Below are positions 11,647-64,000 of a stretch of 64,000 bases of DNA, piece by piece. Below the pieces are notes generated by a model. It searched no databases. It worked only from the letters and a program-made list of their open reading frames with translations, and had not been told where the DNA came from. Every line of letters starts with the position of its first letter. Within the stretch, counting starts at the first letter, position 1. The position numbers and the translations under genes were made by a program. This DNA is from Hormiphora californensis (Eukaryota; Animalia; Ctenophora). The DNA lies in contig CM035359.1 of assembly GCA_020137815.1 (NCBI GenBank), positions 7,626,001 through 7,690,000 of the forward strand, written 5' to 3'.

Positions 11647-14600
11647 ATGACAGTAGACCTCCAGGCTTGGGAACGTAGCCTCCTTACTGGGCCGGGACAG
11701 CCAGTAGCCTCGACGAAGAAGAAACACATGAAGATATTTCTGTCTGATAGTTAATTTGATTGGTCTAATTCTCATGATACATGATTCTTTTATCCTAAAT
11801 ATTCCTAGGGTTTGACCATTTATCCTGATCGTTGTATCTTTGCCCCTCTTATCTTCCCCTTATTGATTGTTGCATGTCATAGGGGAAGAGGCACATAGGT
11901 CCGATGCTGAGTAATGACAGAACACCTAGGGGTGGTTAACCACGAGTCCTAAAAAGACTGGCTGTATTTTATGTACGGTGGCAAACGTGGGCTAAAGTGT
12001 GTAGTGAACCACTGAGCATGCACCACTCTGCCTTCTATAGGCTCAGTGGAACAAACCAGTGGTAAATTATGCACTCAGAGTCCTTCAGTTCAACTCCTAT
12101 TATATGTTGTCCTGGCTAACTCTAGAGAGATCCAGCCGTCCCGGAGTGGTGATCCGGACGGGGTAACCGCAACCAAAGAAAAACAATATGAACAAAGTTA
12201 TACACAGAACACGCATAGGCACTTTCAACTGCAGAACACTCCGAACAGCTGACAAAGTCAGCGAGCTGGCTTATCAATTCTCTAAACATGGTATTGGTCT
12301 TTTGGGTATTCAGGAGCACCGAATTGTCCATCCAGAGACTGTTAAGAGAACCCAGGCTGGGCCAGGACTCAATCCTATTAACATCGACAGCCTGGCGGAA
12401 TAGTATGGGAGCGTCTGTAGGAGGGGTCGGAATCTTAATGGGGACCAATGCATCGAAGCTCATTGTTGAGACAAGAGTGGTTTCTAATCGGATCCTGGCC
12501 GTTACCTTCGCCGGCAATCCCAAGCTGACGCTTGTTTCCGTTTACTCCCCGACAGAGGGTGCCGAATTTGATGAAGTTGAACAGTTCCATAACGAGCTAA
12601 GAGAATACCTACACGAAGTGCCTGCTCACAATCTCCTGATCGTTTGCGGTGACTTCAACGCTCGCCTTGGTTGGGAAGGAACTGCCTCTGGATGGTACTA
12701 TCACCGTACCACCAGCCGTAACGGTGTCCTTCTGAAGGAAACTATGGAGGAAACCAACTTGGAGGCCTCTAACATTAGATTCCGGAAGAAGAAGAGTCGT
12801 TTATGGACATTCCTGTCGGACGGGACACAGCGGAAAGCTACCCTTGACTATATACTTATCAGGAGAAAGTGGAGGAACAGTATTAAGGACACCACGACGT
12901 CCGAGGCGCTAAGCTCCCTTGGATCAGATCACCGGTTGCTGATTGCCAAGGTCAAACTCACTCTACGAAAGAGGAAGACCTTGCCAGGAAGAACGAATCT
13001 TGATTTTGGCCCCCTCAGAACCGACCCGGATCTGAGGGATCGTTTTACTGTTGAGGTTCAAAACCGATTTTCCTGCCTAACATCTGATGCTGAAGATGAA
13101 CCAACTACTAACTATGGTCACTTCATTAAAGCAATACAGGAAACGAGTAAAGCTCTCCTTGGGAAGAAGCGGAAACGTCTGAAGGACGTTGTGGCAGAGG
13201 ACTATAGAGTCAAGCGAGTGAGAACAGAGTTGGAGTGTGCCAGTAAGGAGTACCACGATGCACCAGACGAGGAGACGAGGACTAGAGTAAATAGGGCGAA
13301 GGAAGAGTTATCGGGGGCCTATGGACAAGTTGAGTCGGAGATTATTGAGGGTAAGATTAGGAGGGTAGAGGATGCTGCTAGGAATGCTAAGTCACGAGAA
13401 GTTTGGAGGATAGTAAACGAGGTCTCTGGTAGAAATCTGAGGACAGCTAGTCAGTTGGAGGGGGGCTCGCCGGAAGAGAGGAATGATATATGGTTGAATC
13501 ACTTCCGAACCCTACTAGGGTCTGCACCATCAGGGTCATCAGACACGGAAGTCGAACAGCTCTTCCCCCCGGCGGATATCTTCACTGGCAGCTTCACTCT
13601 TGAGGAATATCAGAGGGCCAAGAAGAGGATTAAGGAGGGGAAGGCTTATGGGGATGACAGCATCTCTCCTGAGGTTCTAAAGAGGTGTGATCTGGATGAG
13701 ATAGTGCTGGGTTTTTGTAATGGTGCATTAGAAGGTAAGGGTATCCCAGAACAATGGACAGTCAGTAACATCATCCCTGTCCCGAAGAAAGGTGATCTTT
13801 CCAAGCCTGGGAACTACCGTGGTATTGCACTGACTTCAATCGTCGCAAAGACATTGAACAGGATGCTACTACATCGCATCCGGCCCTATGTCGAGACAAA
13901 ACTTCTCGACTCCCAGAACGGATTCCGGGAGGGGCGCTCAACCACCAGTCACATCCTGACGCTGAGGAGGATACTAGAAGGTGCGAGGAGGAAACAGCTT
14001 CCGGTAGCCATGGCTTTCATCGACTTCGTTAAAGCATTTGATAGTATCAACCGATCAAGCCTGATGAAGATCCTGAGAGCATATGGTATACCGGATGCTA
14101 TCGTAGACCTTATCCAATGGATTTACACTAACACTAAAGCACAGGTCTTAACAGCTGACGGCCTCACTGCTATCTTTGAGATCGTGGCTGGTGTCTTACA
14201 AGGCGACACTTTAGCCCCATATCTCTTTATCATAGTACTGGATTACTGTCTACGGATAGCACTCAGCAGACACCCGGAGATCGGTTTTACTCTGAGACCT
14301 GCTAGGAGTAGAAGAGTTGGGGCATCTAAAATTACAGACACTGGCTTTGCGGACGATGTGGCCCTGCTGGCAAACTCGGTTGAGGAGTTAGGAGTAGTAC
14401 TACGTGAGGTTGAGACGGTGTGTAAGGAGGTTGGTCTGGCTATTAACCAGAACAAAACGGAGCTCATAGTGGAGAACATCCCTGATCCAGAGCCGCTCCT
14501 TACCTGTGACGGACACACGATCAAAAGAGCAGATGACTTCAAATATCTTGGATCGTGGATCAGAGATTCCAATAAGGACATCAAGAACCGGAAGAGCAAA

Positions 14601-15392
14601 GCATGGGTTGCCTGCCACGGATTGAAGAAAGTCTGGAACTCAGATCTGAACGACGAACTAAAGTGCAGGTTATTTGTTGCTACTGTCGAAACCGTCCTCC
14701 TCTATGGCTGTGAAACATGGTCCCTCACCAAGCAAATGGAGAAGAGCCTTAATGGAACCTACACTAGGATGCTGAGAATGGCGCTCAACAAGAACCAGTG
14801 GCAACTCCGTATGACCAATGGAACGTTGTACGGTATTGGAGGGTTACCAATTCTCAGCACTAAAATAGCAGAACGCAGACTACGTCTAGCCGGTCATGCC
14901 CAACGCCATCCTGAGCTGACCCTCCACAAAGTCCTTCTTTGGGAACCGCTCCATGGTCAAGCCAAACGTGGCAGGCCTACGAAAACCTTTGTGGACGTTT
15001 TACGGCGAGATACGGGTCTGGGTGACGTGAAGGAGATAGCCTCAGTGATGGAAGAACGTGATGCGTGGAGAAAACTTGTTCAAGGCGTTCGGGAATTCCA
15101 CCCGCCTTAAGTCAAGTAAGTCAAGTTGTATCTTACCCTTCTTCTTATTACTCTACATCTTTCTATTTCTATCTCTACCTCTAACTCTCTCTATCTCTCT
15201 ATCTATCTATCTCTATATCTCTCGCTCTCGTTTTCTAAGTGCTTTAATTCAGGCTATTGCACGATGATGCATCCCCACAGATCGAGATTGCTACTTCACA
15301 GATTGCTTCAGAAGTGTGTTGAATTCAATAAACACATGGTTCGAGATTATGGAAACAACTTATTGGTAATCGACTACTATACCAAGTTCTAA
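11647..15392 (+). CDS. Putative spliced fragment resembling the N-terminus of NWD1/NWD2 (DUF4062-like); RTE copy 1 lies in its intron
   Basis: Exon 11647-11749 (MTVDLQAWERSLLTG...MKIFLSD, phase 1, donor GTTAAT) joins in phase to the exon from 15253 (TTCAG|...RDYGNNLLVIDYY). Similarity to the NWD-type IFIS...ENYGLEFQVIDLYWG motif was judged by eye only. Confidence 0.3.
11841..15125 (+). mobile_element. RTE-clade non-LTR retrotransposon, apparently full length (copy 1)
   Basis: Single APE+RT ORF, short 3' tail TAAGTCAAGTAAGTCAAG, and a 9-bp target-site duplication TTGTATCTT at 11832-11840 and 15126-15134. Confidence 0.9.
12188..15110 (+). pseudogene. RTE endonuclease/reverse transcriptase ORF (973 aa if repaired) with a +1 frameshift near 12365
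   Basis: APE motifs GTFNCRT, GIQE, GDFNA, LDYI, SDH; RT motifs QNGFR, IDFVKAFDS, GVLQGDTLAP, FADD, FKYLG. Copy 1 has gccaggactc where copy 2 has gccagactc (one extra G). Confidence 0.9.
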
Positions 15393-16173: not shown

Positions 16174-19100
16174 CCTGCAGGTAGCTGTGCTGTGTTCTCT
16201 GATGTGACAGGATTTGCAATGACACTTCCCTCCCCTACTTGATCAGATGATGGAGAACTGAGCTGGTTGAATAACGGGTTGAGAAGTGCCGGACACAGAC
16301 TACCAAGGTTGGCATGTTCGGTCAGCGAGCTGGAGTGCTCCCTGGAGAGAGATGGAATGAAAACTTGGTAACTGTGTTATCTAAAGGGATTACCAATGAC
16401 TAACAATTGTTACCTCTTAGGCATTAGTGACAGCAGGGTGGATGGAGCAGTGTTTTTCTTCTCGGGTAATGGCGGCAGTTTTCCTCCCCGAGACTGCCTC
16501 CTAATTGGCGGGGGTTTATCGGCTGATCCGTCCAGGTTTAGGTTACGAGAGATGTTAGCAAGGGAAATTCGACGACCCGTTCTACCCGGCATTATCCAGA
16601 ATATATCGTTATATTATCCCGCTACTACTCGAGATGATTCAAAGAGCAAAGACAAAGGTGAAATGTCAGAGAAACGAGGAGCAAAGTAAACAAAAATCTG
16701 GATGGGACTCTCCTTCTTCTTATAAGATGTATCAGGGACCGACCTCGCTCCATATATGGGCATCAGCTTTTCCATATTAGGAAGTTGATATCCGTGACCT
16801 CCACAATTCTGACTGGTAATGACCTTAGATGCTTCTGTAGCATGTCATGTGCTTCCAGCTCCTGATTCATACCCATGAATATTATCTTCCTTCTTCTCTT
16901 TTACAGCTTATGACTGCCAATGAATGAGGCCATAAACATCGGTATAATTTTAGCACCTAATAAAAACTGAAGTTCAAGAAAAGCCTATACCCAAGGAACT
17001 AGGGCGGGAATAATAATGTTGAAAGGTTTGTTACTAAGCTTTGTAGAACAATATTGCGGTGCCTCTTCAGTTCATGCATAGCTGAAGACACAGGAAGAGA
17101 ATATATTTATTCAAAAGTTCCAATTAGAAACTTGCCGCATTTGGAACTTTGTAAAAGAGCTACATTTCTATATTGAGAGCTGCTACTAAAGTACTTATTA
17201 TTGTGAGGTCACTATCATGACTTTAAACGTTACTATCCTGTGCAGCTCTTCTCTCGAAAACTAAAAGCAAAAACAGTTAAAGTAGTAGGAAAGGTGTTAG
17301 AAATTACTTCTCTCTTATAGCTTAAATTAGTTTAGAAGAGGCAATATAGTACAGTAGAAAGAAGTTAAGTCGAAAATCACATAATCACTTAATGATGAAA
17401 TCTCTTGAAACATTACGAGGTATAAAACTCACATTCCGGTCAAATTAAGGAGGAGGATACGCCTCAATAAAAACTACAATTACTACACCTGATACTATCC
17501 TACTCTGCTACTGATACTATCTTGCTCTGTTAACAAAGCTGTGTGAGGCTGATACTATCTTGCAAATACAGCTGAAGCAGCAGGGGTGGACAGAAAATTA
17601 AAACTGTGACGTGCCACAATTTAGAAGAATTCAGTACTTTCCTGCAGAAATTGGAAATAGAACGAGATACAACGTACGGGAGGACCGGAGACAGTGGGCG
17701 TCAACCGTCATAGTTGCAGGAACCGGTGTATTGTGTGGTGGGACTGGATAATTGAGTTTAGAGGGGAGACGACAGCAGAGCACACGTTCAGAGCTATAAC
17801 TCATATACTGTCACTAATTTGTATGTCGGCAGACACCCCACCACAAGTCCTGAGAAAACTAGTATACTTTTGGGAGCTCAGTAGTGGCCCTGAATCGGGG
17901 TCATAGAGGATGGACTGAATCGTTTTTAGAAAGCGTTTAGTGTCTTTAGTAACGCCTTGTCAATAGTAAGACCTTAGAAAGGGTGGAACAAAAACGCGAA
18001 AAGGCCAGTACTGAGTAGCTTGAATTGTGTGAGACATAAAAAGTTCTGTCAGCACCAATTTTATGCAGTATTATAGGTCAACCATGGTCAGAGTGAGAAA
18101 CGTTTTTATAGTGTGTCAAAGTGAGATAAACGTCACACCAAGCAGTTTGATACGCAATATATTATTCAACTGGATACAAATTTCTAGATTTGTATGTAGC
18201 TCAATTCGAGCGTGATTAGATCAACTGCTACTCGACCATCTCTCTCACTAGGATTCATTTCATCTAGGTAATTGATCAGCATAAAACTGCTATATTACTT
18301 AAAAGCTACGACAAACTAGACCAATATAATATCCGACCAACGTCTAATTGAAACTGCATCTGAAGATCACTCTTGACAAAAACACACTCTTGACTACTGA
18401 TATAGCTTTGACTACAGCTGATATAGTTGACTACTGATATAGTTGACTACTGATAAAGTTATACACAGAACACGCATAGGCACTTTCAACTGCAGAACAC
18501 TCCGAACAGCTGACAAAGTCAGCGAGCTGGCTTATCAATTCTCTAAACATGGTATTGGTCTTTTGGGTATTCAGGAGCACCGAATTGTCCATCCAGAGAC
18601 TGTTAAGAGAACCCAGGCTGGGCCAGACTCAATCCTATTAACATCGACAGCCTGGCGGAATAGTAATGGAGCGTCTGTTGGAGGGGTCGGAATCTTAATG
18701 GGGACCAATGCATCGAAGCTCATTGTTGAGACAAGAGTGGTTTCTAATCGGATCCTGGCCGTCACCTTCGCCGGCAATCCCAAGCTAACGCTTGTTACCG
18801 TATACTCACCGACAGAGGGTGCCGAATTTGATGAAGTAGAACAGTTCCATAACGAGCTAAGAGAATATCTACACGAAGTACCTGCTCACAATCTCCTGAT
18901 TGTTTGTGGCGACTTCAACGCTCGCCTTGGTTGGGAAGGAACTAGTTCTGGATGGTACTATCATCGTACCACCAGCCGTAACGGTGTCCTTCTGAAGGAA
19001 ACTATGGAGGAAACCAACTTGGAGGCCACCAACATTAGATTCCGGAAGAAGAAGAGTCGTTTGTGGACATTCCTGTCGGACGGGACACAGCGGAAGGCCA

Positions 19101-22100
19101 CCCTGGATTATATACTAATAAGGAAGAAATGGAGGAATAGTATTAAGGACACCACGACGTCCGAGGCGTTAAGCTCCCTTGGATCTGATCATCGGTTGCT
19201 TATCGCCAAGGTCAAACTCACCCTACGGAAGAGGAAGACTCTGCCAGGAAGACCGAATCTCGACTATGGTCCTCTCAGAACCGACCCGGACCTGAGGGAT
19301 CGTTTCTCTGTTGAGGTTCACAACCGATTTTCCTGTCTAGCATCTACTGCTGAAGACGACCCAACTACGAACTATGGTCACTTCATTAGCGCAGTACAGG
19401 AAACGAGTAAAGCTCTCCTTGGGAAGAAGCGAAAACGTCTGAAAGACGTTGTGGCAGAGGATTATAGAGTTAAGCGAGTGAGGACAGAGTTGGAGTGCGC
19501 CAGTAAGGAGTATCACGAAGCACCAGACGAGAGGACGAGGACCAGAGTAAATAGGGCGAAGGAGGGGCTATCGGGGGCCTATGGAGAGGTTGAGTCGGAG
19601 ATTATTGAGGGTAAGATTAGGAGGGTAGAGGATGCTGCTAGGAATGCTAAGTCACGAGAAGTTTGGAGGATAGTTAACGAGGTCTCTGGTAGAAACCTGA
19701 GGACAGCTAGTCAGTTGGAGGGGGGCTCACCGGAAGAGAGGAATGATATATGGTTGAATCACTTCCGAACCCTACTAGGGTCTACACCATCAGGGTCATC
19801 AGACACGGAAGTCGAACAGCTCTTCCCCCCGGCGGACATCTTCACTGGCAGCTTCACTCTTGAGGAATATCAGAGGGCCAAGAAGAGGATTAAGGAGGGG
19901 AAGGCTTATGGGGATGACAGCATCCCTCCTGAGGTTCTGAAAAGGTGTGATCTGGATGAGATAGTGTTGGGGTTTTGTAACGGTGCTTTAGAAGGTAAAG
20001 GTATTCCAGAACAATGGACAGTGAGTAACATCATTCCTGTCCCGAAGAAGGGCGACCTGTCCAAGCCTGGGAACTACCGTGGTATTGCACTGACTTCAAT
20101 AGTTGCTAAAACGTTGAACAGGATGCTACTACATCGCATCCGGCCCTACATTGAGACTAAACTCCTTGACTCCCAGAACGGATTCCGAGAGGGACGCTCA
20201 ACCACCAGTCACATCTTAACACTGAGGAGGATACTGGAGGGTGCGAGGAGGAAACAACTCCCGGTAGCCATGGCTTTCATCGACTTTGTTAAAGCGTTTG
20301 ATAGTATCAACCGTTCCAGCCTGATCAAAATCTTAAGGGCATACGGCATACCAGATGCGATCGTCGATCTTATCCAATGGCTCTACACTAACACCAAAGC
20401 GCAAATCCTTACAGCTGACGGCGTTACTGCTATATTTGAGATCGTGGCTGGTGTCTTACAAGGCGACACATTGGCCCCGTATCTCTTTATCATAGTGCTG
20501 GACTATTGCTTACGGATAGCACTCAGTAGACACCCGGAGATCGGTTTCACTCTGAGACCTGCTAGGAGTAGGAGAGTTGGGGCATCCAGAGTTACTGACA
20601 CTGGCTTCGCGGACGACGTGGCCCTGCTGGCAAACTCGGTTGAGGAGTTAGGGGTTTTACTTCGTGAGGTTGAAACGGTATGTAAGGAGGTTGGTCTGGC
20701 TATTAACCAGAACAAAACGGAGCTCATAGTGGAGAACATCCCAGATCCAGAGCTGACACTCCACAAAGTCCTCCTTTGGGAGCCTACTCACGGTCAATGT
20801 AAACGTGGCAGGCCCTCGAAAACCTTTGTAGATGTTCTACGGCAAGATACGGGTCTGAGAGACGTGAAGGAGATAGCTTCAGTTATGGAGGAACGTGATG
20901 CGTGGAGAAAACTTGTTCAAGGCGTTCGGGAATTCCACCCGCCTTAAGTCAAGTAAGTAAGTAAGTCAAGACTGATATGGCTGACTACTGATATAGTTGA
21001 CTACTGATATAGTTGACTACTGATATATAGTTGACTACTGATATAGTTGACTACTGATATAGTTGACTACTGATATAGTTGACTACTGATGACAAAACAG
21101 GCCATTTCACAGGTGGTCACGCACAGCAATAATTGACACGGGGGCAGGTTGTTGTATCATGTGTCCTAATCACGTTTATTGTCAGAGAGTGAGTCGTGTG
21201 ACGTGCAATATCTCCTCTATTATGGCCCTGTTTGACTGGGTGGCTAATGAGTCGGCGTAAAAGTGTCAAAGTGATGATATATATATATATGCACTGAATA
21301 ACTGTATCAGAATGACAAAACCTAATGTGACATTATACGTTGCAAGTTGTGTCGATGACAGCGATCAGAATATTAGGACACGGAATACGTAATGAAAATC
21401 AATTAAACTCCACACTTAGCACTTCACCACCAGAGCTGCACACAATTAGGACCAGAGCTGTGGGAAAAGGATCATAATGCACTGACTCCATTATAACATG
21501 TATAACAAATCTGTGTTGACATCATTCGACGATTTGATCTAGTATTCATGATAATTATGTTGTTCTTACTCTATAACTAAGAAACATACGACTGGGTACT
21601 GACGTGGGTTTATTAAAAGATTGGTGTCAATCAGTCTCTGTGAAGGAGTTAATAGTTCACTAAATTAGGATATATCAGAGACCTATATAGGTTCCCTAAC
21701 AATGGCCCTAGATCAAAAGATCTTGAGCTATTGGTCTACACGAGGGTTCGAGACGAAAAGTTAATTTAGCCGGAAATGGGAGATTACAACAAATTATAGG
21801 CCACAATTATTGGCCACATTAAATGATCTTATATTAAATATCGCGGACAAATTATATGATCGGTTCTCCATAGACATGCACACATACTTTCCCAGAATCT
21901 CAGCTGTGAAGTGAAAAAGAAGTTAGAAGAGCAATGTAGGTACAATGGTACCAAGGTTAAACCCCTAAAATGGGGGGGGCCAACGCTCATTTTTTATATA
22001 TTTTTATATATTTTATATACCTTTTTTTTGGGAAAAAAAAACATAATTTTTTATATATATAAAATATATAAAAATATATAAAAATACATATGAATATATA

Positions 22101-23994
22101 AAAATATATAAAAAATATATAAAAAATATATAAAAATATATAAAAAATTGTGCCGAAAGTGTGAAAACAGAAAGCTGTTTTTCGCCATAGCGGGATCAAA
22201 TATCATTCAATTGATCTCAAACTTGGTCAGCATCTTCATCTAGATAATCCTGATGATTTTCCGTCATCAATGTGACGTTTGTAACATCGTGACGTCGCGT
22301 CAATAACGTCATGACGTCAAAATGACGTCAAAAATGATTTGTTTTTTTAGTTTCGCGATCCCAACCTCTCTTCACCAGTTCTAGTACAGTCGGACCCCGA
22401 TTTAGGGGCCCCCGATTTAGGGGCACCCCGATTTAGGGACAGGATTTTTTTCCCCCAAAAATTTTTTGAATTTTTTTTGTGAAATTTTTTGTGAAATTTT
22501 TTTGAAAATTTTTCAAAAAGATACCAGCCACGTCCGAATCGTGTTTCGAATCAGTGAATCTTATCGCATGTCCTGCTGCTAATTAGACGGTTGTCGCTTC
22601 GGAACGAACTGATACGTGATCCACATGGGGCCATTGAATCACAAGTTCACCAAGCGTCAAAATTTCGATTCGATGGGGATCACGTTTCGATTCGTTCCGA
22701 ACCGTCTAATTAGCAGCAGGAGATGCGATAAGATGCACCGATTCGATACGCGATTCGGACGTGGCTGGCATACCTTTAAAAAATTTTAAAATATTTTTGC
22801 AAAATTTTACAGTACGATTGTCAATGCTTTGATCGGTGCTCCCCATAAATTTTGAGAGAAAAAGTTATTTTGAAATTTTGATACTTCCTCACCCGCTTAG
22901 GGTGCCCCGATTCGGCATGGTATCACGTATCGGTTCGTTTGGAATCCACTAATTAGACAGGACATCCAGTAAGCTGCACCGATTCGAAACACAAATCGGA
23001 CGGGCTGGTATAACTTAGAAAATTTTTAACATTTTTTTGAAAAAAAACTATTTTATATTTTTCTATTTCTAATCAGAAATGATGATGTCATCAATACATG
23101 AATATTGCATATAACAGTTAGAGGTGTCTTTAGTCTTAATAATATAGCATTTTGGGCATAAAATAGGTTTTTATGGGCTAAATATGGCTCACCCCGATTT
23201 AGTGGACACCCCGATTTAGTGGACAAGACCCTTTCCCCCGAGGGTGTCCCTAAATCGGGGTCCGACTGTACATCTGCACGGATCAACATACAAAAAATGA
23301 TTGAAATCACACCAAAACTGGTAGATATTATTAGGCCGGAACCTCTCTTCACCAGTTCTACTTTTGACAGTGCATAATTCACTTTTGAACACATTCTCAA
23401 TTATGTAAAACAGCTATCACCCTCTCAAACACTTAAATTAACTCTATGAAACATATTCAAGTGAACAATAGATGAAAATAATCCCCTTTTTTGAAAGTAA
23501 AAGGGGTGAAAAAAGGGTTTATTTTATATATTTTTATATATTTTTTATATAACTTTATATATTTTTATATATTTTATATATTTTTATATATTTTTATATA
23601 TATATAAAAAATTCCAAAATTAAGGAAATATATAAAAAATTCGTTGGCCCCCCCCCCTAAAATCCCCCTAATACCTGTGTGGTGGTTCGGGCGGTGGAAG
23701 TTTTAAGGGGGGTGGCCGTTTCCGCTGTTTCCGTTTTCCTTTTTTCTTCTTCTTGGGACTGGGAAGATATCCCTGGGATTCAGAGTGACCTACTGTCCAA
23801 TCCATGTTGGCGAGGGATACCCGACGAGTCATTATTATATCGACTTAAAACATGTGTTAGGTGAAAAGCCAAGAAACTAGAAAATTTATAAAGAAATGGC
23901 CGAGATTGAGATTGAGAGTAAGAGAGGGAGAGTAAGAGAGGGAGAGTAAGAAAGGGAAAGTAAGAGAGTGAGAGTAAGAGAGAGAGAGAGAGAG

Positions 23995-24039
<45 letters not shown>

Positions 24040-27000
24040 AGAGAGGAGAGAGATGAGAGAAGAGGCTATGCTAGCAGTGACACGCTAGAGCAGAGCTACG
24101 ATGAGAGAAATAAAAAGAGACCAGACGACTAAGACGCGAGTAAGACGTCGTCCCTAAGGATGAGCTTAGCTTCCGATGGAGCGGTCCGCCGGCGGCTGCT
24201 CCAGCGCCGCTTCTCTCGTGCTCTCGTCGCCCTTCTCTCCCTCTCTCTCTATCTTATATCCCGCCTGACTCTCTCCCCTCTCTATCTTGCTTTGCGCCCT
24301 CTTCTCCTCTCTCCTCTGCTCTCTCCTCTGCTCGATCGAGGAGAGAGAGAGATAAAGATATCAAATAAGACCACATTTTTTATTTGATTGTGGTCGGAAG
24401 CGGAAAGCATGGCGGTCGGAAGTCTCTACTAGAAACATCCCATCTGTGGTTTATCAAAAGAACACGTCACATACCAACAGTAGACTACAATTCAAAAACT
24501 AGTTAACAAGGCAAACAAAACCTTAGCTCATTTAAAATGAGTTAAATGAGTCATTTTATAGCAAACGTCTTAGAGTTGCCTTACTCGACCCTGTTTTACA
24601 AATTTAAAGGAGAACGTAACAAAGGCAGAGAGGAGCGGCACAGTCAGTAAGAACGACAACCAGTTATATAAAGTTCTCAGCTTATTGCTACTAATCGATT
24701 TAACCTATACACACTTTTCTGAGGAATTAAGTTATTCAAAGGAGGCCGCTAAAGTGCTCAACCCCAATTTAACACCCAACCAACCACCACACCCTAACTG
24801 TTACCCACCCGTTACTTACATGATAATGTCAGCAGTGTGGAATGAGTCATTGGTTGCCAGGGACAACGCATCTTCGGCCGCAGCAACGAGAACTTGTTTA
24901 GCCCGGTACCCCAACAGGAGGGATAGTAGCCGCTCTTTTCCCGCCTGAAATAGGAAGTGTGAGATGAAATGCGTTAAAGATGAATGACGCCGACTATTTT
25001 AGTTCTAGCTACAATTATTGTAAAAATGTGCAGAAGATTTACCGCAATAAGTAGAGCACGGTTTTCGATAATAGTTTGAATGATGTTTCCAGGCATTTTG
25101 AAGGCTTTTATCGAATTGTTCAGAGTCTCAGACAATTCATAACTATGCAAATAAAGCTTGAAAAGGTTTGAAACAAATCAGGGCAATCTTTATGAGGAGA
25201 TATAGTGCGGGTATGTGTTGTAGCTAGTAAAACCTAACAAATAACATAATATAATATTCGGATGACGGGGCATCTACTCTGCAACTACAACTCTCAGAAC
25301 AAATATATAGGTTCTCACATTTAATACCAGAAATAGCCTATATATTGGATGAACCACAGTTAACTAACGGAAGAGCCCAATGGAAATGGTAAGCTTTACA
25401 TATTGCCGAGAATAGGAGAGAGCATTCGAGCTATGAGTGGAAAGAGAGAGAGATGAGTAGACAGAGAGAATTGGATAGACAGAGAGACCTGGTTAGAAAG
25501 AGAGTAATGGTTAGACAAAGATGATTAGGGAGACAGAAACGACATATAAGGAATGACTCCAAAAAAGAAAGATGCGAGACCCGTACAATAACTGTCCACA
25601 TGCTATGACATAATTTATATACCACTTATCAGCTCGTTATGAAGGACTTGGTACTTAGAGTTTACACAGTACCCCGACACACCTACTACATCTGAAAGTA
25701 CTTAAATCATCATGGCACAAACACTGTCATGAAACGGACATCATTGATCATCTTGCAATTCGGTGCAGAAAAAATAGTGGAAGAAAGGCCTGGAAATATG
25801 CATGTCCACACGATAAAAAAGGTACTAAAAGGGGTACTATAATAAAAAGTGATGTATAGCTGTGATGTACCCTAAGATGAGATTTCTTGGTGGGAGTAAA
25901 GACATCAGGTGTGTAAACTGGCGTACTGCAAGTAGACCCCGGGTCCTCCTCAAGTGGGGCATTGTGTCCCCGCAATAGCGGGCCAATGTATCTTGGAGGT
26001 GATTCGGGTGTCCCGGAAGAGAAGGAAGGGGAGGATGAAAGGGGGAACAACTCCGGGGAATCAAATGGTGAGCCAGTTTGGTGTTTTGGTGGTTCTGGTC
26101 TCGTTAGAGTTTTAACTTTTATTGGCTGGGAGGGGAGGGTAGAGGCGGGTGTGGGTCGAGGTGGGCCTTCTTTTAATGTTTGCAACTCCGAAGACGCATC
26201 TCTCTTGTTTTCGTTTTTGTGTTCGTATTTACTACTGCAGCTGCTATTGTTTGTCCCAGTCTGCTGAACATCATCATTGTTGCTAGAACTCCCCTCCGTG
26301 GCTCTCTTACTATCCCCGAACCCAAGATGTTCCTTCAAGAAGTGTAGTGGTACAGTTATAACGTTCAGGGAATCCCGCTTCATCCTGTATAGTAGTGCAG
26401 AACTTCCCCTGTGTCCCTCTTCCACGGGCTGGATTCCAACTGCAAATCTGTCAGAGGTTATTGGACCGGTAGGAATTTCAATTTCAGGTGTGGGGGTGAA
26501 CACAACTGGTCGGGAGGGTGCGTGAAGGATGGAGTGAAGATGGAGTCGTGGCGGGGGTTGCGGAGGAATTTCAATCATCTCCATAGCAACCCCTTCTATG
26601 GGAGGTGCAGATGGAATGACACCAGGAACATAAAACTCAGCCCGAATCTTAGCCAGATCCTCATTCAACTGATTCAAATCTTTCTGATATTGTTCGCTAT
26701 CCCCACTACTCGTTATATCTGCCTCTACAATCGTATCATCATAACTGTCCTCATCAAATCCGGAGAGAGTGATAACCGGAGACAATTCATCCTCGGAATC
26801 CTCCTGAACGAACTCTAAAACCTCCTCTAGATTCCCCTCTTTACTGTCTAGTCCCCGGAATCTAACCCGCCGCTTTTTGGTGACATTGAAGAATTGAGCT
26901 TTCCTCCGGGTCGGTTGTTTTATAATGCTACCGGGTGATTTTAGTAGTGGGGCCATGGTAACGGCAGATTCAGACGGTGACGTAATAGCAACACCACCTG

Positions 27001-29091
27001 GTGACGTCATAGCAACGTCAGATACAGGTGTTTCAGCGCTAACAACAGTTTCCATGGTTTCATTAGACTCTAAAGTGGCAACACTCTCTTTAGACTGGCT
27101 GAGTTGTGAGGTAGCTGCTAGAGGTATTATACAAGGTATAAGATCTGATCCTACTCCAGGCACAATACTATCTTGAACTGTCACTATGTTTCTCAGATTG
27201 TCGGGTAGCATGTCAGACCCAACTCTATCTGAGCTAATGCCCTCTATTATTACAGGTTCTGCAGATTCTGGTTCCACAGAGGCCACCCTTCCGATCCTCA
27301 CCCCTCCTTTAGTGGTCACATCAACGTAACACAATCCCATTGAGGGTGATTCAGCAGGGATATCTGGAGATATAGAATCCTCATCTGACGATGTTAGGAT
27401 GTTGCTGGATACTTCATCCAGAGTTGTGGGAGACGTCTCATCGGGTGGAGGGGTGTCAACCCGAGGTGAGGTGGGAGGGTCTGAGATACTGGCAACGGTG
27501 ACTATCTTAATCCCTTGATTTATCAGAAACTCAACCGATCTCTCTGCGGGTGATGTTGCTCCTTCATCAATAATTTCATCATTCTCTGGAGTTACTATTA
27601 GGGAGTATTTACCGGGCATCTTGTAAAGAGGACTCTGCGCACTACTCCGTCCATTAGTATCAATCACTAAGACATGATCATTAGGGAGTTCCAAGGTGCC
27701 GGGCGGTGGTTTGATTGTAGGATCTGATTCAGAGGAGCTAATCTCCAGACTGACTTGACAGATTCCACTTTTAGCGATAACCACAACTCCTGCTTTCTTG
27801 CTCGTATCATTGAAATCTTTTATTGGACTAGTACTCTGGTCCACTACAGTGATATTCTTCACCTTTACCTCCCGTCTCATATCATCCACCTCTCGGCAAA
27901 TGTAGTTAGCGTAGTAGTTAACTGGGCTATCCCTGGTCAGCTCCACTTGTCTCTCTATCCTGTCCCGGTGAAGTTGGAGAGAAACCTCACGGAGATTCTG
28001 GTATCGGTCCAGGAGGGGCGAGAGTTGGGGTTCCGCTCGGTGAATGGGTGGAAGGCGGATTTCGTGTTCCGAGGGTAGTTGTGAAACGTCGAACCTTTGA
28101 AAAATAGAATAGTACATGTGGTTGGTTTTTCTGTGCAAATTAGAAATTTATGATGAAGTCCTACTAATTCCAAACATTTAATAAATTTGAAGCTTTTTTA
28201 CCTTGATATTCTGCACCGGCCACTGTTGGGACTATGTACTACTCGGTATTTTGACAGAATGTACGCCTCCCTTTCAACAATCCTACTAACTCGGGATAGC
28301 TCGGCAACAAACTCTGGTTCAACTGTGACCCTCCTGGGAGAGTTATTGGGACCTCTTGTTCTTGGGACACTCTTCTCTAACCTGCCAAGAGATTATCATG
28401 CTGACTACAAACTTTGTCAAACTCTAGAAATTATGCAACAATAATATTATATGGATTGGTGTTTGAAAATGGGTTGTTTTGTTCAAACCCATACGGTGCG
28501 TGGGGAAACAGGGTCGAGCATGTAGTTACTAGTAATATGCACTACTAGTTGGTGTGGATTATTCTGCTGCTCAAAAGTGTTCTAATTATAATGGAATAGT
28601 GGTTCTTTCTCCAGTGTTGGATCAACCACTAATTACCTCAGATGTCTATAAAGATTTGGCGAACACCCATCTGGTCGAACAGATGCACTAGATGGTACTA
28701 CCTCCATAAAGTGTAACTTCTCCCCTCTGTTATCATACACTCTAACCTGGGCAAGATGATTTCAGTAATTTTCTAGACATTCCTCAGCTTGCACGTATCT
28801 AAGTTTCTCTCTTTCATCAATCAATAGGACTTAGAATCGCAAGAATCATATTCAAATCACACGGTACCTGTTCAAAATTTTCTTCATCCCACGTGACGAT
28901 TTTCTTGTCAAGATCAGGTGTAAAATCGCGGGCACTGTGATATTCCGACTGATCAGATCTCCTAAAAATATTTGTGAATAGTCCATAATAAAAAAGTATT
29001 TGAAAGACTGAGAAAATCCGAGGACTTACGTTGATGCAGAGCTCTGTGAGCGCCGGAAAGGTACAATCCATGAAGTAACCCATGACGACAT
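16174..29091 (-). CDS. Large multi-exon gene, 5' part, unknown product (long Pro/Ser/acidic disordered exon); continues leftward
   Basis: Phase-consistent GT-AG chain 29091-29030 (ATG), 28961-28868, 28746-28637, 28381-28202, 28094 to about 25871. Further exons 25142-25043, 24944-24820 and 16341-16174 are phase-consistent with each other. The link between 25871 and 25142 is unresolved (phase mismatch, probably a missed exon). Confidence 0.6.
16414..16592 (-). CDS. Putative alternative first exon (MPGRTGRRISLAN...MPKR)
   Basis: ATG-initiated; phase-2 donor AG|GTAAC is compatible with the acceptor at 16341 across a 72-nt intron. Confidence 0.5.
18390..21090. repeat. 16-bp minisatellite (ACTGATATAGTTGACT)n split by RTE copy 2
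   Basis: Units at about 18390-18454 and 20971-21090, on both sides of the LINE. Confidence 0.85.
18455..20970 (+). mobile_element. RTE-clade LINE copy 2: 5'-truncated, with a 423-bp in-frame internal deletion
   Basis: Collinear with copy 1 from its third codon. Protein reads ENIPDPE|LTLHKV, lacking copy-1 bases about 14494-14916 (FKYLG and thumb). 3' tail TAAGTCAAGTAAGTAAGTAAGTCAAG. Confidence 0.92.
21972..23655. mobile_element. Non-autonomous DNA transposon with GGGGGGGGCCAACG termini, (TTTTTATATA)n subterminal arrays and an 8-bp TSD
   Basis: TIRs at 21972-21985 and 23642-23655; CCTAAAAT duplicated at 21964-21971 and 23656-23663 (boundary slightly ambiguous within the C-run). Confidence 0.8.
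22387..23268. mobile_element. Tc1/mariner-type MITE nested in the element above
   Basis: TIR CAGTCGGACCCCGATTTAGGG and its reverse complement, TA at 22385-22386 and 23269-23270, repeated CCCCGATTTAG subterminal motifs, internal inverted repeat about 22520-22775. Confidence 0.9.
23675..23832 (-). CDS. Putative alternative first exon (MTRRVSLANMDW...KKKKKGKRKQRKR...PPHR)
   Basis: Open frame from ATG to phase-2 donor AG|GTATT; shares RR(V/I)SLAN with the 16414-16592 exon and fits the 16341 acceptor. Confidence 0.4.
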
Positions 29092-29561: not shown

Positions 29562-29931
29562 CATATATATATAGAGAGAGATGTATAGAGAGAGAGGAAG
29601 AAAGAGAGATGAGCGAGAGGGGAAGGGAGGGACAGGGAGAAGTAGAGAGGGAGAGAAAGGGCAGAGAGAGAGAGAGGGAGAGAGAGCGAGAGAGGGAGTG
29701 AGAGAGATAAAAAGAGGGAGATAGAGAGAGAATGAGGGAAAGAGGGGGAGAGATAGAGAAAGATAGAGATAGATAAAGACACTGAGAAAGAGTGGACGAA
29801 AGTGAACGTCGAAACGAACGAAAATGAGAAATATAAGAGAGAATTGGAAAAACTACTACTACTTGTAAATAATTTCTGCTAAGAGATTGGGAGGGGCATG
29901 CAACAGAAAATCCTTTTAATGTCCCGTCGCA

Positions 29932-29955
29932 GCCCCGCCCAGTGATATATATAAG
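29932..29955 (+). promoter_or_regulatory. GC box and TATA box upstream of the secreted-protein gene
   Basis: GCCCCGCCC at 29932-29940; TATATATAAG at 29946-29955, about 70 bp before the ATG at 30022. Confidence 0.55.
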
Positions 29956-30021
29956 AGGTGCATCTGATCAGCACATCTGCATTATCTCCAACTTGAAACC
30001 TCCAACTCCACAACTCAAACC

Positions 30022-30771
30022 ATGATCCATATTGTTTTCCTGAGTCTTGTCTCTGCTGTCCTGGGGGACTGTAAGGTGCACCTCGGTTCCCTGGTTACAT
30101 TGGAAAAAGAAGTCATGGACTCATTCATCTCCCTTGTAATCGCTTCCGGATATGAGTAAGTCTCCCCATTCTAAACGATAAATTGATGATTAATTTTGGT
30201 TGCTTTGTTCTTGTCTGTACATGCAGATCATCTTTGATAGATGTTATTATTTCAAATCATGCTAACACAGATCCTCCCCAGGAACCTAGCTGTCTCATCA
30301 GTGGAGTCTCAGTACATGTTCAGTAAGCTGACTCCCATGTCGAAGCAATCCGTTGAGATTGAAGTCATCAGGCACGGACTTGATATCGTCAGACTTGGCG
30401 CATCTGGTAAGTTTAATTGCATGATATCTACCTTATGATGTCCTTATGATCCATCTTGATGCTTCAACTGTTTCCAAATATAGTTGACTCATTCCTCTGA
30501 CTAACACACTCATCGCCCCCCCTCAGCAGATAGTCCCTTGAAAGACCTCACTCTCCCCGCATCTCGGGTGTCGGTCTACGGAACCTTCAAGACCCATGTG
30601 GTCCAGCTGAAGGAGACAGTGGACGACCTTGCCAAGTGTGCTGGAGTTACCCACGACCCCATCTCCATCAGTCGGATGAACCCCAAGGCTGTCCTGGTAA
30701 TGATCATGGATAAGATGATCAGGTTGAGGATAGCTACCACTGAGCTCCTTCTCAGGCAGGATGGCTGTTAG
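30022..30771 (+). CDS. Complete 3-exon gene for a 167-aa secreted, predicted all-alpha protein (four-helix cytokine-like candidate)
   Basis: Exons 30022-30155, 30282-30406, 30527-30771 total 504 nt in frame. Both donors are GTAAGT and both introns have CTAAC plus a pyrimidine tract and CAG. Signal peptide MIHIVFLSLVSAVLG; Cys at 17, 124 and 167. The gene model is well supported; the fold is inference. Confidence 0.8.
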
Positions 30772-31558
30772 ATATCCTCTCATTCAGATCGGAATGTCCT
30801 CACTGAGGATTCCTCCTCCAGCAAGACAGCTGTTGATAGTGGAAACTGGACAGTTGTGTGTTCGGAGAGTCGTGTATATATTAGATTCTCCAAGGGCTCA
30901 AGCGACTTTTAGGAGCTTGCTAGAGCTTTGGAGCTAAATGTACACTGAACCGTACGGTGGTTAGGTCAGGTGCACATGAGCTAACCACCGTGCGAATAGA
31001 TAGTTGGAGATAAGTGTTATTTGACATAAATTATAAAAATTAGGGCTTAATTTATTAATTATTTGAACCAGTGATATTTATGTTTAGGTGTACTTACTTG
31101 TTTATTTGCTTATTTGTGTGTATTTGAACAAACATACTTGCGTGACACTGTTTTAATTTATTTGTTTATTGTTATTTGTTTATTGTAGTTAGTTATTTAA
31201 ATTTTTCACCCAACCAACGTGTCTCAATCAGGGGTGGACCCAGGTCGAAATAAGTTGCGGTAAGGAGATTCAGTTGTCTTACATAACTCGGGAGTTAAGA
31301 TACCGATTACCGACCTCATTATAGAAACTCGATTACCTTTCACTATAAACAACAAAATCATGATTCATTTTGAGAAACCAATATTCATTCAAACGAGAAA
31401 CAGATTTATGCAGACTACGGGCTTGAGCTACAATCTAGACTAACAACAAAAATCGAGTCATGAGCTTACGGTGATTCCATATCAGCTGATGGGCTTACTT
31501 TAACCATACATTTCACTGTTCTTGACATCAAAACGATCCGATCTCACTTGTCAGTGTT

Positions 31559-31624
<66 letters not shown>

Positions 31625-31866
31625 CTCTCTCTCTTTTCTGGGAAGCATGTTTGGCTTTGTTTCTGGTTTTACCTTGTTGTATCCTTAGCAAATAATTATG
31701 TCTATTCGGGATTCCATATTTTATCATTTTAAACTGTCACAACTACAATATATTTGTACTTCTTTTCGACAGGAATTATCGCCAATTGCATTTTCCATGA
31801 TTTTGAACCCATACACCAGTAAAGTTGACTGGGTAAACTGAGTAAACGATTTAGGAAGGTGACAAC

Positions 31867-33269
31867 ATGGTAGGTCTATTATATGCTCTCTACTAGTGAA
31901 TTCATGTTCGCACTAGTTCTCACTCAGGGCTTTTTTATGTCGGGCTGAGGGTGTTTACTGTCACCCCTTCGTGTGACACATAATAATATCTCAGGCAGGA
32001 TCCCGATCGGATAGTGAAAATGGGGATCTTATGGATGAGGATTTCGATATTGCCCTGGAGCACCACTCCTCCAGTAAACTGCTAGAAATAGTGGACATGG
32101 TCGATGTACCGGTGACACCTGACATCCTTGACATAAACAGGTAGTAACGAGACTTTTTGTATCACCTAGAGTCTCTAGACCAAGCATCTGCCTTTTTAAT
32201 TGTATAGATGGAGATATTTGTAATGAATGTATCTCTCCCCAGCCTATCCCCGACCTACTCCAACTCAACATACACCAACACCATGGACGGCTCCATTACC
32301 ACGGCAACCTCACTTGGCTACTATGACGAATTCTCAGACGATGGCTCAAACGTTTTCCGTCTCAACACCCCCGAACAACTTATAAAAGATCCAAAAGCAA
32401 AAGCAAAGACAAAACCGCCAAAACCTGAACCACCAAACAAACTAAACTTCAGTTTGAAATGGTCAAAGAAGACCAAGTCGAAAGCACCAAAGGGATTTAG
32501 CCCTATAATAGAAGCGAAACAACCACCTGGAGGGAACACTGGTAAAGTGTCAGATCACAGTTCGAAGAGTTCCAGTTCCCAGGAGGTGATGCAGATGGAT
32601 GATGGGTATCAGGGCACTCCTTCCCCTGACCAGCCAGAGAAACACACCCCAGGTATGAGGTAATTCATGGTAGATATACATAATGTTGATTCCTTATATC
32701 GGGGGAAGTTTATCCTTCAGGTAAATCGGGGTTCCGGTAATTGGTAAATCGGGGCCCGGTACATCGGGATCCGACTGTACCAACCGACTAACCGATTTGT
32801 AACTGAACAACTTGTTACTAAACAAAATATTCAACTTTCATTCAGAATTGTTTGGATCATGGCCCCTGAACGTAATTAAAACGAAGCTAATTAGACGTAA
32901 TAAGAATCAAGTGGAGGAGACAGAGGAACCCGTATATATAAATACTGTACCCATCGAACCAATACAGCCCAAAAAACAACGTATGTCATTGCGAGAACCA
33001 GATATAAGCAACAATTATATTGGTTATAATTGGGTCGCTTTTGGTTTGATCAACCCATTCATTTTACAGCGGTTAAAAAGAGTTACATTTATGCTCTATA
33101 TTCTGACTTCGTTACCCGGCCGAACGCTCCCACGCCGATGCATGATTTTATGAAGGAGCAGTTTAGGGCAGCCGATGATGTTGATACACCGACGTTGTGG
33201 CAGAATGTGGCGGAGGTCTATGTTTTCTGGAGAAGATTAGTTGGCCTAAGAAGAAAACGACTATTTAAG
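31867..33269 (+). CDS. 5' exons of a possible Ephexin/SGEF-type RhoGEF; DH-PH-SH3 exons not found in the window
   Basis: Phase-consistent exons 31867-31869 (ATG), 31995-32140, 32243-32652, 32846-32980, 33070-33215 or 33269. LYSDF...PTLWQNVAEV resembles the LYQEY...LWQ(D/E)xPEV segment that precedes the DH domain in Ephexins. The gene model is better supported than the family call. Confidence 0.55.
32690..32780. mobile_element. Short MITE remnant related to 22387-23268, inside an intron
   Basis: Repeated TAAATCGGGG motifs ending in ATCGGGATCCGACTGTA. Confidence 0.6.
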
Positions 33270-33929: not shown

Positions 33930-34870
33930 ACAACTTTTCCAAAAACTTTTCTAAAAACTTTTTTAAAAACTGTGAAAAACTGCACCTTTTCTGTGGGGAC
34001 GTTACGATCTGGGTGTTTGGTGGCCTGTTTACAGGTGCACGCTGCCAAAAAAGTTGATTCACTAAAATGGCTCTAACCGCCAAACCACTCAACCGTTTTG
34101 GCTAATTCAAAGTTTATCTGCTAGGAAATGTCAAAGCCTAACAGTCCGTCATGGCGCATCTGCACGTGTGGTTCTTCCAGATAGAAATTCCATATATAAA
34201 TTCCAGATAAAAATTCCAAATAGAAATGTGTATGACGCCGTGTAACCCCAACCCAAACCACAGCCCTAACCCTAAACCCACTTTAGCCCTAACCCTAAAA
34301 AACCGTTTGTCAGCACTCACCAAAGGAAAACGTTAAAATCTGGGTGCCTTTCATTGCTAACAATTCGTAGTTTTGGCGAGCGCGACGGGTTAGGGCTATC
34401 CGTTAGGGTCTGGTTAGGGTTTGGATTGGGGTTATCGGTTAGGGCTATCCGCTATCGATTCTCTACCAGTTACCGTTTAGTTTAATCAAATTGGCCATGT
34501 GGTTGCGTGGCTATAGAAGTTTGAAAAAAGTCGGTCTAGGTGTACTCTTTTGGTAGCGCGCACCTGTAAACAGGCCGCAAGGCACCCAGATTATAATAGC
34601 GCCCCTCACCAAACACCCAGATTTTAACGCTGGCTCTTTTCTGCGGGCGCCGTTACGATCTGGGTGTTTGGAGGCCTGTTTACAGGTGCGCGCTGCCAAA
34701 AAAGTTGATTCACTAAAATGGCTCTAACCGCCAAACCACTCAACCGTTTTGGCTGATTCAAAGTTTATCTGGTAAGGAATGTCAAGGCCTAACCACAACC
34801 CAAACCCCAACCCTAACCCTAACCCTACTTTAGCCCTAACCCTAACGCTGGCCCTTTTCTGCACCTTTTC
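33930..34870. repeat. Composite repeat: about 140-bp direct duplication, inverted partial copy, and degenerate CCCTAA/TTAGGG arrays (Helitron/Helentron-like)
   Basis: Direct copies about 34001-34141 and 34652-34793; inverted copy about 34552-34623; (AACCCT)n at about 34243-34298 and 34788-34846; (TTAGGG)-like tract at 34387-34445. Confidence 0.6.
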
Positions 34871-35167: not shown

Positions 35168-53225
<18,058 letters not shown>

Positions 53226-55439: not shown

Positions 55440-58400
55440 TCATTGAAGTAGTGGCGGAGTGGGTAGATCACCCTCCAGACGCTGCAATGACAAACAAACA
55501 AGCTATGACTGCTTTCGAACATTTCGAACTCACACTAGACCAGTTGGTTTGTAGGTTGGCGGGTACAAATTCATTCTCCGTGTAATCATTGTTCTCAAGG
55601 AACTGCAGCCCACTCATAGCACGAGTATAACCCATATTCAGTCTGGGGAGGTTATTAGTTTAGTGTTAATGTACTGCCATTAATCGTTATCATCATGGTT
55701 ATAAAAGCCGAGATTTTTACGTATTGGCACTTGAAATTGCCTAACAAAGTATAGTTCCGACAACGGTCAACGGGTGGAAATTAAGCCCAGAGGATAATTA
55801 AAACATGGTACTCACTCCAAAGCGATGCTAAAATGTTGGTGAGCCTTCTCGTGTTGTCGCAAGGAAAGGTAACACTCTCCTGCACTAGTATGCGCCCTGT
55901 ATGTCGAGTTGTGTTCCAAAAATGTCTTGACGTACTCTAATCCATCCTTTGCTTTTCCCTCCCTAGACGGTAATTGGTTTAGCTTGGGGGTTGGAATATA
56001 TATCTCTCTAATCACCAAACTAGACAACTCTGTTGTAATAATATGGACAAATTGAGACTCGTTGGATTTCAGGATCAATAATTACTACGGGAATTAGACA
56101 ATTACCTAATGAAGATATTACACACATTGCATACTGCTTCCTCGCAAGACGGATCAAGGGACAGCGCTTTGAGGTAGAAATCCTGGTGGGGGAGGCGTGT
56201 TTATATCTTTGAAGTTTGACTATTAGATTAGGTCTGATATGCCCTAAAAGTTGTCAAATATTGCCCCACACAGTACACAACCTCCGTATCTACCTTGGCA
56301 CGCTCCCGTAGTTTCCCATTTTCCTCTGGATATCGACTAGTAGCATGTGCAATAAGCAGGAAGGTCCTGCTTTGTCCTGGACACTGTTTCACACTCTCTT
56401 TTGCAGCTATTACCGCCTCTTTAAACCTCTCCACCTTTAACAAGGCTATCACCATACCTGGAAGGGTATAATAGAGAATAGAGATAATGATTGATAAGAC
56501 GAGAGGTGGCACTTCTGAGGGGTGATAAAACCTATAATTTTACCTTTGTGCGCCTCGAAACAGTTTGGTCGAATACTCAGTATACTCCTAAAGGTGACCA
56601 TGGAGGCTGTAGTATTGAGTCCCATAATCTCAGAACACCCTTTAGCAACCAGGGCTGGGATGTAACGGGGTGACATGTGGCAGGCCCGGTCTGACAAGGC
56701 TTGGGCAGTATGGAAATCTTCCTGGGGGGATAGAGTGGATTAGAGAAGAGTAGTACACTTCGAGAGATTAGAAACAGGCACAGGATTAGAGGATGGAAAT
56801 AGAGGGAAAGTATTTAAAATATAATGAAAGGTAGACAGGGAAACACAATAGAAGCGGAGAGCGAAAAAGAGGGAGAGTAAAAGAAGGAAAGAAAGAAAGA
56901 AGGAGAGAGAAAAGAAAACGGAAAATAGCCAACAACGGATGCCCAATGTTGCCCTAACCTTGTTCAGTAACTATTCAATTAGAACATAAAATACAGACAC
57001 TGCACCATTAGAAAATGCGTACTACTGCAGCACAGACAACCAATAACAAGTCTCCTGCTCCTTCTAAATAATGTAAATTGTAAACAAAACCCAATTCCCA
57101 ATTCCTTATTTCAGAAAGAGAGAGAAAGAGGGGAGCGTATAATAATAATAAGGGACTCACCTTGACGATAGCAAGATAACAGTGTGCAATATAACTCTCC
57201 ACACTCTCCGTCTCACTCAAACTGACACACAACTGCTCCAGTGCGGGGGTGTTGTTCTGTTGTGCTAGAAGGGAGGCGTAGGTGCCAACGTGTTCCCGAT
57301 AGGAGTGGTTCAGGATGTACGCCTGCTCAAAGGATTGACATGCCCTTCTGTACTGACCTGGGGGAGAAAGATAGATTTAACCAGTGCGAGACCTGAGTTA
57401 AGTATAAAATTTTCATACTGGTAACCTTTTATAGCAGCACAATTAATTGTAATTATATTTTACCTATAGCATAGTAGGAGGTAGCTATTTTAACATGTAG
57501 ATAGGGGCTGGGTCCATTGCAGGATAGCAGTCTCTGGAACCTCGCAATAGCCCGATTGTGCTCACTACGTGCACTGTACGCACACCCCTCGACCCAGTCC
57601 AGTAACCAGTCAAACCTGGTACCAGCCGAGTCTGTTATCAAGCTGAAATGAAATTACAGAGTGTTATAAACAAACTGGACATGGTCTCTGCCTGGGTTTA
57701 ATACACAATCTAGATTCTTCTTCACGAATTCTACCAATATATCTCACCTTGTTATCTCCTTGTTGATTTGACCAAGTTGTACCAGCCCTTCAATGGCTTC
57801 CAGTGCCAGAGGATACGTCTTCAGCACCTCCTTGTAACATGTGACTGCTGACCTTTCAATACCTAGAATACAAGGTTCAGGATTATTTGGTTGAGGTGAA
57901 TTGAATACAGGAAGACAGACAAACAGGGGTATAGAACTGAAGCAGTGCTAAAATACACACCCAGTTGCCGGTAGAGGTTTCCCAATGCCATATAGAACCT
58001 GGCTGTCCGTGATTTAGGGCTGATTGACTCTAGTGCCCCTAGAGCACTGTCATAGTCAAATATAGCCAAGTAGCACTGGTACATTAACCACCTGATAAAC
58101 ACAGAACAAAGATAGAGAGCAATAGAGAGAAACAATTAACTAAACTCCAATTAATGATAAACATAAGGACATGATGATACCTTATTTCACACTCCGTAAC
58201 TGCAGAGGCTTGTCTGTCTTTCTCGACCAGAAGTAATGCTTGGTGCAGCTTATCCTACAGTAGAGGATTTGTTAGAAAATACCAAAACAATGTTTCAAAG
58301 AATTATTAACTGAATCTCAGAAACATTACTAGCTAAATTCTTACCAGTGCTTGGTTGTATTGTTTAAGCTGGTAGAGTGCGTCTGAGAGGTAAAAAAGAG

Positions 58401-62400: not shown

Positions 62401-62523
62401 ATCCACTGCAAGTTCCAAGACATCAATTGCTTTGTTTCTTAGAGAGAAGCAGTTGAGTAGACCAAACTTCAGCCTTTTGGACACAGTTAGTTTTTTGATA
62501 GGTACTGGAGACGGATTGGGCAA
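59432..62523 (-). pseudogene. LINE ORF2 endonuclease/reverse transcriptase, disrupted at about 61360-61420
   Basis: APE motifs LTETW, GDFNIH, LDLI, PDH in 61354-62523; RT motifs QSAYR, LDLSAAFDTV, GVPQGSILGP, YADD and L2-like SRLDFGN in 59432-61261. The two parts are in different frames, and the RT frame has a TAA at 61367-61369. Confidence 0.9.
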
Positions 62524-63665: not shown

Positions 63666-63840
63666 GACATTTAAACAAAACTATTGTATAGTTAGTTTAC
63701 ACACTTATGTCTTCTGCTTGAAAAGGCTTGCTTGAAGAGGCTTTTTGAACAAGGTAGCTGTTGGAAAATGGAAAGTGGAAACAAACAAGGAAAAAACTAA
63801 AAAAATTAGCAAAACTTTTATTTGTAGTGGAAGCTCTTAC

Positions 63841-64000
63841 GGTAATTCCCACGCCCCGTGGGAAAGTTTTTGACCGTGGGAAAGTTTTCAAAGCGTGGGA
63901 AAAGAGAGATACATACAAAAAATAAATTGTTTTTTATTAGTTATTGTATGTATCTCTCTTTTCCCACGCTTTGAAAACTTTCCCACGGTCGAAAACTTTC
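63841..64000. mobile_element. Palindromic (foldback) MITE, possibly Merlin-like, cut by the window edge
   Basis: Begins GGTAATTCCCACG with repeated CGTGGGAAA; about 63861-63918 is mirrored by 63944-64000. GGTAA fits Merlin-type termini; TSD cannot be checked. Confidence 0.6.

Follow-up and report, generated by a model that had tools for sequence, protein, structure and literature searches.

Does a comb jelly encode a secreted signalling protein with the four-helix fold of cytokines? The question is raised by a compact gene on the + strand of a 64-kb window of Hormiphora californensis DNA (GCA_020137815.1, contig CM035359.1, positions 7,626,001 to 7,690,000; all gene positions below are counted within this window), for which a first-pass annotation, made from the letters alone, had proposed an inducible cytokine- or hormone-like ligand. 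To our knowledge, helical cytokines are untraceable by sequence and the ligands of invertebrates are mostly unknown; no helical cytokine ligand of a comb jelly was found in the literature searched, the gene identifier not being among the queries. As described below, the gene model is encoded in the DNA; overall we see a real, likely secreted orphan whose cytokine-like fold is plausible, and a role as paracrine ligand is the favoured but tentative reading.

Three-exon gene and its likely secreted product

The three-exon structure was confirmed in the DNA, with GTAAGT at both donors, CAG at both acceptors and a terminal Cys-stop (Table 1); joining of the exons in silico yields 167 residues, ending with Cys immediately before the stop. 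Both acceptors carry a pyrimidine tract in front of the CAG, together with the branch-like sequences CTAAC (30262) and CTGAC (30497), and the GC content is 0.46-0.54 for the exons against 0.35-0.40 for the introns, which contain 6 and 4 in-frame stops and are therefore non-coding. The coding frame gave the best codon-usage score among the six frames, with a GC content of 0.62 at third codon positions, and the gene is present as a single copy in the window. A product of over 140 residues with this C-terminus results from 41 GT-AG combinations; GTAAGT stands at both donors in 6 of the 41, and the annotated model is the longest of these six. Intron 2 ends with the tandem acceptor CAGCAG, which allows splicing at 30526 or, 3 nt further on, at 30529, the latter giving 166 residues; the choice adds or removes one Ala. 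As the two introns (126 and 120 nt) are both divisible by three, all exons share a single genomic frame.

Residues 1-15 are hydrophobic, with Val at position -3 and Gly at -1, and a cleavage site behind Gly15 would agree with the -3/-1 rule, the rule of thumb by which the signal peptide was judged. A 15-residue signal peptide, and hence a secreted protein, is therefore likely, in agreement with the first-pass annotation. The predicted mature chain has 152 residues and an isoelectric point (pI) of 6.5, and the 167-residue product contains no transmembrane-grade hydrophobic segment after the signal peptide, no dibasic site (KR, RR, KK or RK), no repeats or low-complexity tracts, no N-glycosylation sequon and no catalytic motif. 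Cys was said to be both the second mature residue and the last one, as is the case for Cys17 and Cys167, but a third Cys, at 124, had gone unmentioned. In erythropoietin and thrombopoietin a disulfide joins the N- and C-terminal helices. A corresponding Cys17-Cys167 bond would be uninformative on topology, because the termini are brought together in both bundle topologies, and Cys124 allows an alternative pairing.

Relatives and the Pleurobrachia bachei gene model

Relatives were sought with exon 3 as the query in a full HMMER search of 1.84 billion protein representatives, which gave 3 matches. The top match, P0004, is an independent 67-residue metagenome fragment with the identical Cys-stop end, and its cluster has two members, the second being the Pleurobrachia bachei gene model P0007 (sb|3465883| in EukProt; 366 residues). 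The remaining two matches were dismissed as relatives, one of them being a 15-repeat LysM protein. Thus no credible relative beyond P0004 and the P. bachei model was detected among the 1.84 billion representatives, in keeping with the proposal that a non-bilaterian animal secretes an orphan protein, and we place the gene among the ctenophore-restricted secreted orphans.

Exons 2-3 agree with P0007 at 106 of 109 residues, including a 100% match for the final 30 residues of exon 2. The intron 2 donor is shared with the P. bachei model, whose acceptor is the one at 30529, 3 nt downstream, but this model begins at an internal Met, without exon 1 and without a signal peptide, and it leaves the gene via a donor within the final Cys codon, continuing through a translated CT microsatellite into exons at 31485-32651. 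Because of the translated microsatellite and the donor inside the last Cys codon, we read the 366-residue model as a probable fused prediction. The fused P. bachei annotation hides the secreted form, which is absent from the protein collections covered here; for exon 1, no independent database record was found. Relative to P. bachei and P0004, the product differs at three amino acids, all within residues 138-144 (window ~30680-30702; P=0.007 if uniform), the start of predicted helix D; these differences could have arisen in a single mutational event or could mark a surface patch that varies.

The exons at 31980-32660 (+) belong to a separate protein, which is fused to this gene in the P. bachei model and is 94-98% identical to that model. 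It is acidic, Ser/Pro/Lys-rich, of low complexity and likely intracellular, with no Pfam match.

Predicted fold

Single-sequence AlphaFold2 models, made for exons 2-3 only, are of low confidence (predicted template modelling score, pTM, 0.41-0.45). Helices were predicted at residues 66-85, 103-124 and 139-165 (pTM 0.41), almost exactly where the first-pass annotation had placed amphipathic segments B, C and D; the C-D linker has 14 residues, and the linkers of these partial models contain no predicted strand. The amphipathicity itself turned out weak: of 8 segment definitions, one (residues 103-124) had a helical hydrophobic moment above that of shuffles (P=0.02), and for the four annotated ranges the moment did not stand out (P=0.27-0.62). 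The topology was read from the alignment ranges of low-confidence fragment models, without coordinates; these ranges imply that C is antiparallel to B and parallel to D, with B up, C down and D down, which suggests an overhand C-D linker and thereby the cross-over order of cytokines. Such a cross-over topology is typical of cytokines and rare in other proteins. The proposed cytokine fold gains some support from this putative cross-over connection. No significant fold match was obtained for the partial models of exons 2-3. Helix A, putatively in exon 1, would complete an up-up-down-down bundle, in which Cys17, Cys124 and Cys167 would come together at the same end; two of them could then form an internal disulfide, and the third would be free for a dimer.

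Regulatory sequences and the ligand reading

The reading that we favour over any other single one, though only tentatively, is that this compact three-exon gene encodes a likely secreted four-helix protein acting as a paracrine ligand through a receptor other than a JAK-coupled class I cytokine receptor. The folded domain would be released whole and bind a surface receptor, and expression would be induced at the TATA promoter, perhaps through the ctenophore interferon regulatory factor (IRF); these are the weakest steps of the scheme. The fuller version, an IRF-inducible ctenophore ligand with the up-up-down-down fold that signals via an unfamiliar receptor, we regard as doubtful. If true, the helical cytokine fold would predate JAK and class I receptors, at the animal root, or would have been reinvented there, and the putative cross-over linker lends some support to this reading. 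If the fold differs, the gene would be one more ctenophore secreted orphan, of use only for correcting the fused P. bachei gene model.

The TATA box of the first-pass annotation was found at 29948. TATATAA by itself has 16 copies on the + strand of the window, but its pairing with a GC box is unique in the 64 kb on either strand, and CCCCGCCC, at the GC box, is the sole copy in the window. The annotated GAAA strings are likewise present, in a tract with the joint-highest GAA[AC] density in the window. The 9-mer GAAAGTGAA, which we take to resemble an IRF element from the IRF consensus, has one copy on the + strand, in this tract, and one on the - strand, and AAACGAACGAAA occurs again at 53317, inside a GA-rich stretch. 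An IRF site is possible, because an IRF is reported from P. bachei in a review (PMC11359984).

Against local shuffles, the GAAA count (P=0.05-0.07) and tandem GAAA (P=0.04-0.07) are borderline, and at least 4 GAAA per 40 nt were found at 11 loci on both strands of the window. The four ATTTA pentamers, present where annotated, are equally borderline: 1.4-1.9 are expected, with P=0.04-0.11 over three region choices (0.04 for the tightest window, 0.08-0.11 for the wider ones), and such clusters, counted by start, number two on the + strand and four over both strands. No AATAAA is present in 30760-31500; the vicinity offers just two poly(A)-like hexamers, CATAAA and TATAAA, both 5' of all four ATTTA. 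Since these hexamers are all upstream and the stretch is T/GT-rich, it may be, instead of an AU-rich element, a downstream element of the cleavage site, located outside the mRNA.

Comparison with known proteins and alternative readings

True homology with a class I helical cytokine of the erythropoietin, thrombopoietin and IL-6 group, with a cytokine-type FN3 receptor, is improbable in our judgement, even though the signal peptide, the total length of 167 residues, within the roughly 140-200 usual for such cytokines, the 152 mature residues, the helix positions, the putative B-C-D order, the terminal Cys pair and the IxxGL in helix B would all fit. Long-chain members (erythropoietin, thrombopoietin, G-CSF, IL-6, IL-23p19) share with it the signal peptide, a mature length of about 150 residues, helices 20-27 residues long, a Cys close to each terminus, IxxGL, and the parallel C/D arrangement with overhand linker proposed here; they differ in having a longer C-D and a shorter B-C linker. 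The 14-residue C-D linker and an A-B linker of ~21-23 residues recall IL-4, and Cys at the start of A and the end of C recall the disulfide of SCF, CSF-1 and Flt3L, but compared with the short-chain cytokines (IL-4, GM-CSF; SCF, CSF-1, Flt3L) the predicted helices C and D are longer, the linkers are predicted to be strand-free, and neither a sequence match nor a significant structural match was found. IRHGL does stand at residue 74, as annotated, yet IxxGL is a three-letter motif picked after the fact (0.05 expected), and the rest of the IL-6/G-CSF pattern C-x9-C-x6-G-L-x2-[FY]-x3-L is missing, since the product contains neither the full pattern nor a relaxed form of its second half. No Pfam cytokine family matched the three exons (E up to 1) or P0007 (E up to 10), nor is there sequence similarity to long-chain members; distant members of cytokine families often fail Pfam and signature tests too. 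PMC2654155 gives only 5-15% identity, undetectable by sequence, between helical cytokine families, and describes a five-exon, phase-0 layout, with phase-0 introns at helix boundaries in the mammalian IL-10-family, IL3, IL21 and IFNL1 genes; here three exons are separated by codon-splitting introns in the A-B linker (phase 2) and the B-C linker (phase 1). The receptor side points the same way, in that CRLF3 was not found in Ctenophora according to PMC6797617, which, citing others, also suggests JAK and cytokine receptors to be bilaterian additions. Intron, signature and receptor evidence weighs less against a protein that works like a cytokine than against one that is a class I cytokine, because SCF, CSF-1 and Flt3L have the same fold and act through receptor tyrosine kinases, not JAK.

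Nearly as likely as a paracrine ligand is a lineage-restricted secreted effector or matrix protein of gland, tentacle, mucus or gamete surface, helical and bulk-binding without signalling, since ctenophores have many novel secreted proteins, their tentacle and colloblast gene sets being enriched in novel signal-peptide proteins (PMC6278862). The gene resembles the ctenophore secreted proteins of that report and of bioRxiv 10.1101/2021.03.31.437758 in its signal peptide, short length and lack of homologues outside ctenophores, and differs from tentacle, colloblast and neuropeptide proteins in having one apparent folded domain and no dibasic sites, repeats or low-complexity tracts. The same bioRxiv text describes linear neuropeptide precursors as having a signal peptide and mostly dibasic cleavage sites, with others allowed; with zero such sites, the product did not match this class. 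TATA promoters and compact genes are also typical of highly expressed effector genes, segments A and D are hydrophobic rather than amphipathic (11-residue hydropathy reaching 2.05 at residues 31-41), and the substitution cluster is compatible with a gamete-recognition protein as well; what speaks against an effector is the lack of repeats, low complexity, basic charge, sequon and catalytic motif, the single copy in the window, and the proposed cross-over topology. It is quite unlikely that the three-exon model is wrong or silent, with exons 2-3 part of a longer gene or the locus untranscribed: the P. bachei version, without exon 1 and running into 31485-32651, and the missing record of exon 1 would agree with this, but the extension of that version is typical of fusion, exon 1 has a promoter, an ATG, a signal-like start and a GTAAGT donor in matching phase, and the Cys-stop is preserved in P0004, from a second individual. 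Largely refuted, and the least probable, is a secreted glycan sensor in which exon 3 would encode a degenerate LysM module that binds peptidoglycan or chitin. The top ESM Atlas clusters scored 0.90 (137/256 features, LysM on 12% of members), phmmer matched the 15-repeat LysM protein with E=5e-4, and exon 3 reached 11.6 bits with a profile of its repeats, more than any of 1000 shuffles (best 8.4); however, this profile derives from the best of 1.84 billion proteins, the match spans 15 residues (10.8 bits, against 46-108 for true repeats, left-one-out), 137 common features are below the 170 usual for true family matches, and the ESM Atlas signal was lost with exons 2-3 as the query (best 0.76). 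In addition, Pfam LysM (PF01476) did not match, Asn138, the would-be conserved Asn, is Ser in P. bachei, and AlphaFold2 folds the matched stretch as a single helix, not as the ~45-residue beta-alpha-alpha-beta unit. The remaining probability goes to folds and roles not considered here.

Features of the locus and the rest of the window

Table 1. Coordinates of the gene and of the features around it, as positions in the window.
Feature	Position	Strand	Description
GAAA-rich tract	29798..29831	+	One IRF-element-like 9-mer, GAAAGTGAA; end of a 400-nt GA/purine tract
Core promoter-like	29933..29954	+	GC box 29933-29940, then TATATAA 29948-29954, ~70 nt 5' of ATG
Coding exon 1	30022..30155	+	ATG 30022; probable signal peptide, codons 1-15 (30022-30066); Cys17; putative helix A
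Intron 1	30156..30281	+	126 nt, phase 2, GTAAGT...CAG; GC 0.35; 6 in-frame stops
Coding exon 2	30282..30406	+	A-B linker and predicted helix B (residues 66-85, containing IRHGL)
Intron 2	30407..30526	+	120 nt, phase 1, GTAAGT...CAGCAG; 4 in-frame stops
Coding exon 3	30527..30771	+	B-C linker, predicted helices C (103-124, with Cys124 as its last residue) and D (139-165), Cys167, TAG
Hairpin	30951..30994	+	44 nt, probable 3' untranslated region; -31 kcal/mol, z -5.3
Variant poly(A) signal candidates	31025..31037	+	CATAAA (31025), TATAAA (31032)
T/GT-rich stretch	31040..31210	+	ATTTA at 31050, 31076, 31156, 31195; T fraction 0.52; GT-rich bins

The hairpin downstream of exon 3, which had escaped the first-pass annotation, is single-copy and consists of 14 plus 3 base pairs around a 1x1 mismatch, with an 8-nt loop; none of 200 shuffles was equally stable, and no Rfam family came close to threshold. 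It may serve as a regulatory stem, or it may be what is left of a small palindromic element.

In divergent orientation to the three-exon gene lies a 799-codon open frame (25748-28147, -), which is Ser/Pro/acidic-rich, has no Pfam match and contains RRRVRF, presumably a PP1-docking-like motif. On the other side, a multi-exon P-type cation ATPase gene, Na/K-ATPase alpha-like by inspection, extends over ~35170-53100 (+), one exon matching the Cation_ATPase_C and hydrolase families, and exons with weak, sub-threshold TPR-like Pfam matches at 56228-57376 (-) probably belong to a TPR protein gene. Long interspersed nuclear element (LINE) retroelements with endonuclease and reverse transcriptase domains occupy 12219-15110 (+), 18443-20947 (+) and 59432-63680 (-); the former two are near-identical, the second having an internal deletion near its end, and the third carries a zinc-knuckle ORF1. 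Long inverted repeats at 22494-22798, 34544-34705 and 63862-64000, with arms of 99, 61 and 64 nt, are likely miniature transposons, and degenerate telomere-like CCCTAA tracts are located at ~34260-34440 and 34790-34845.
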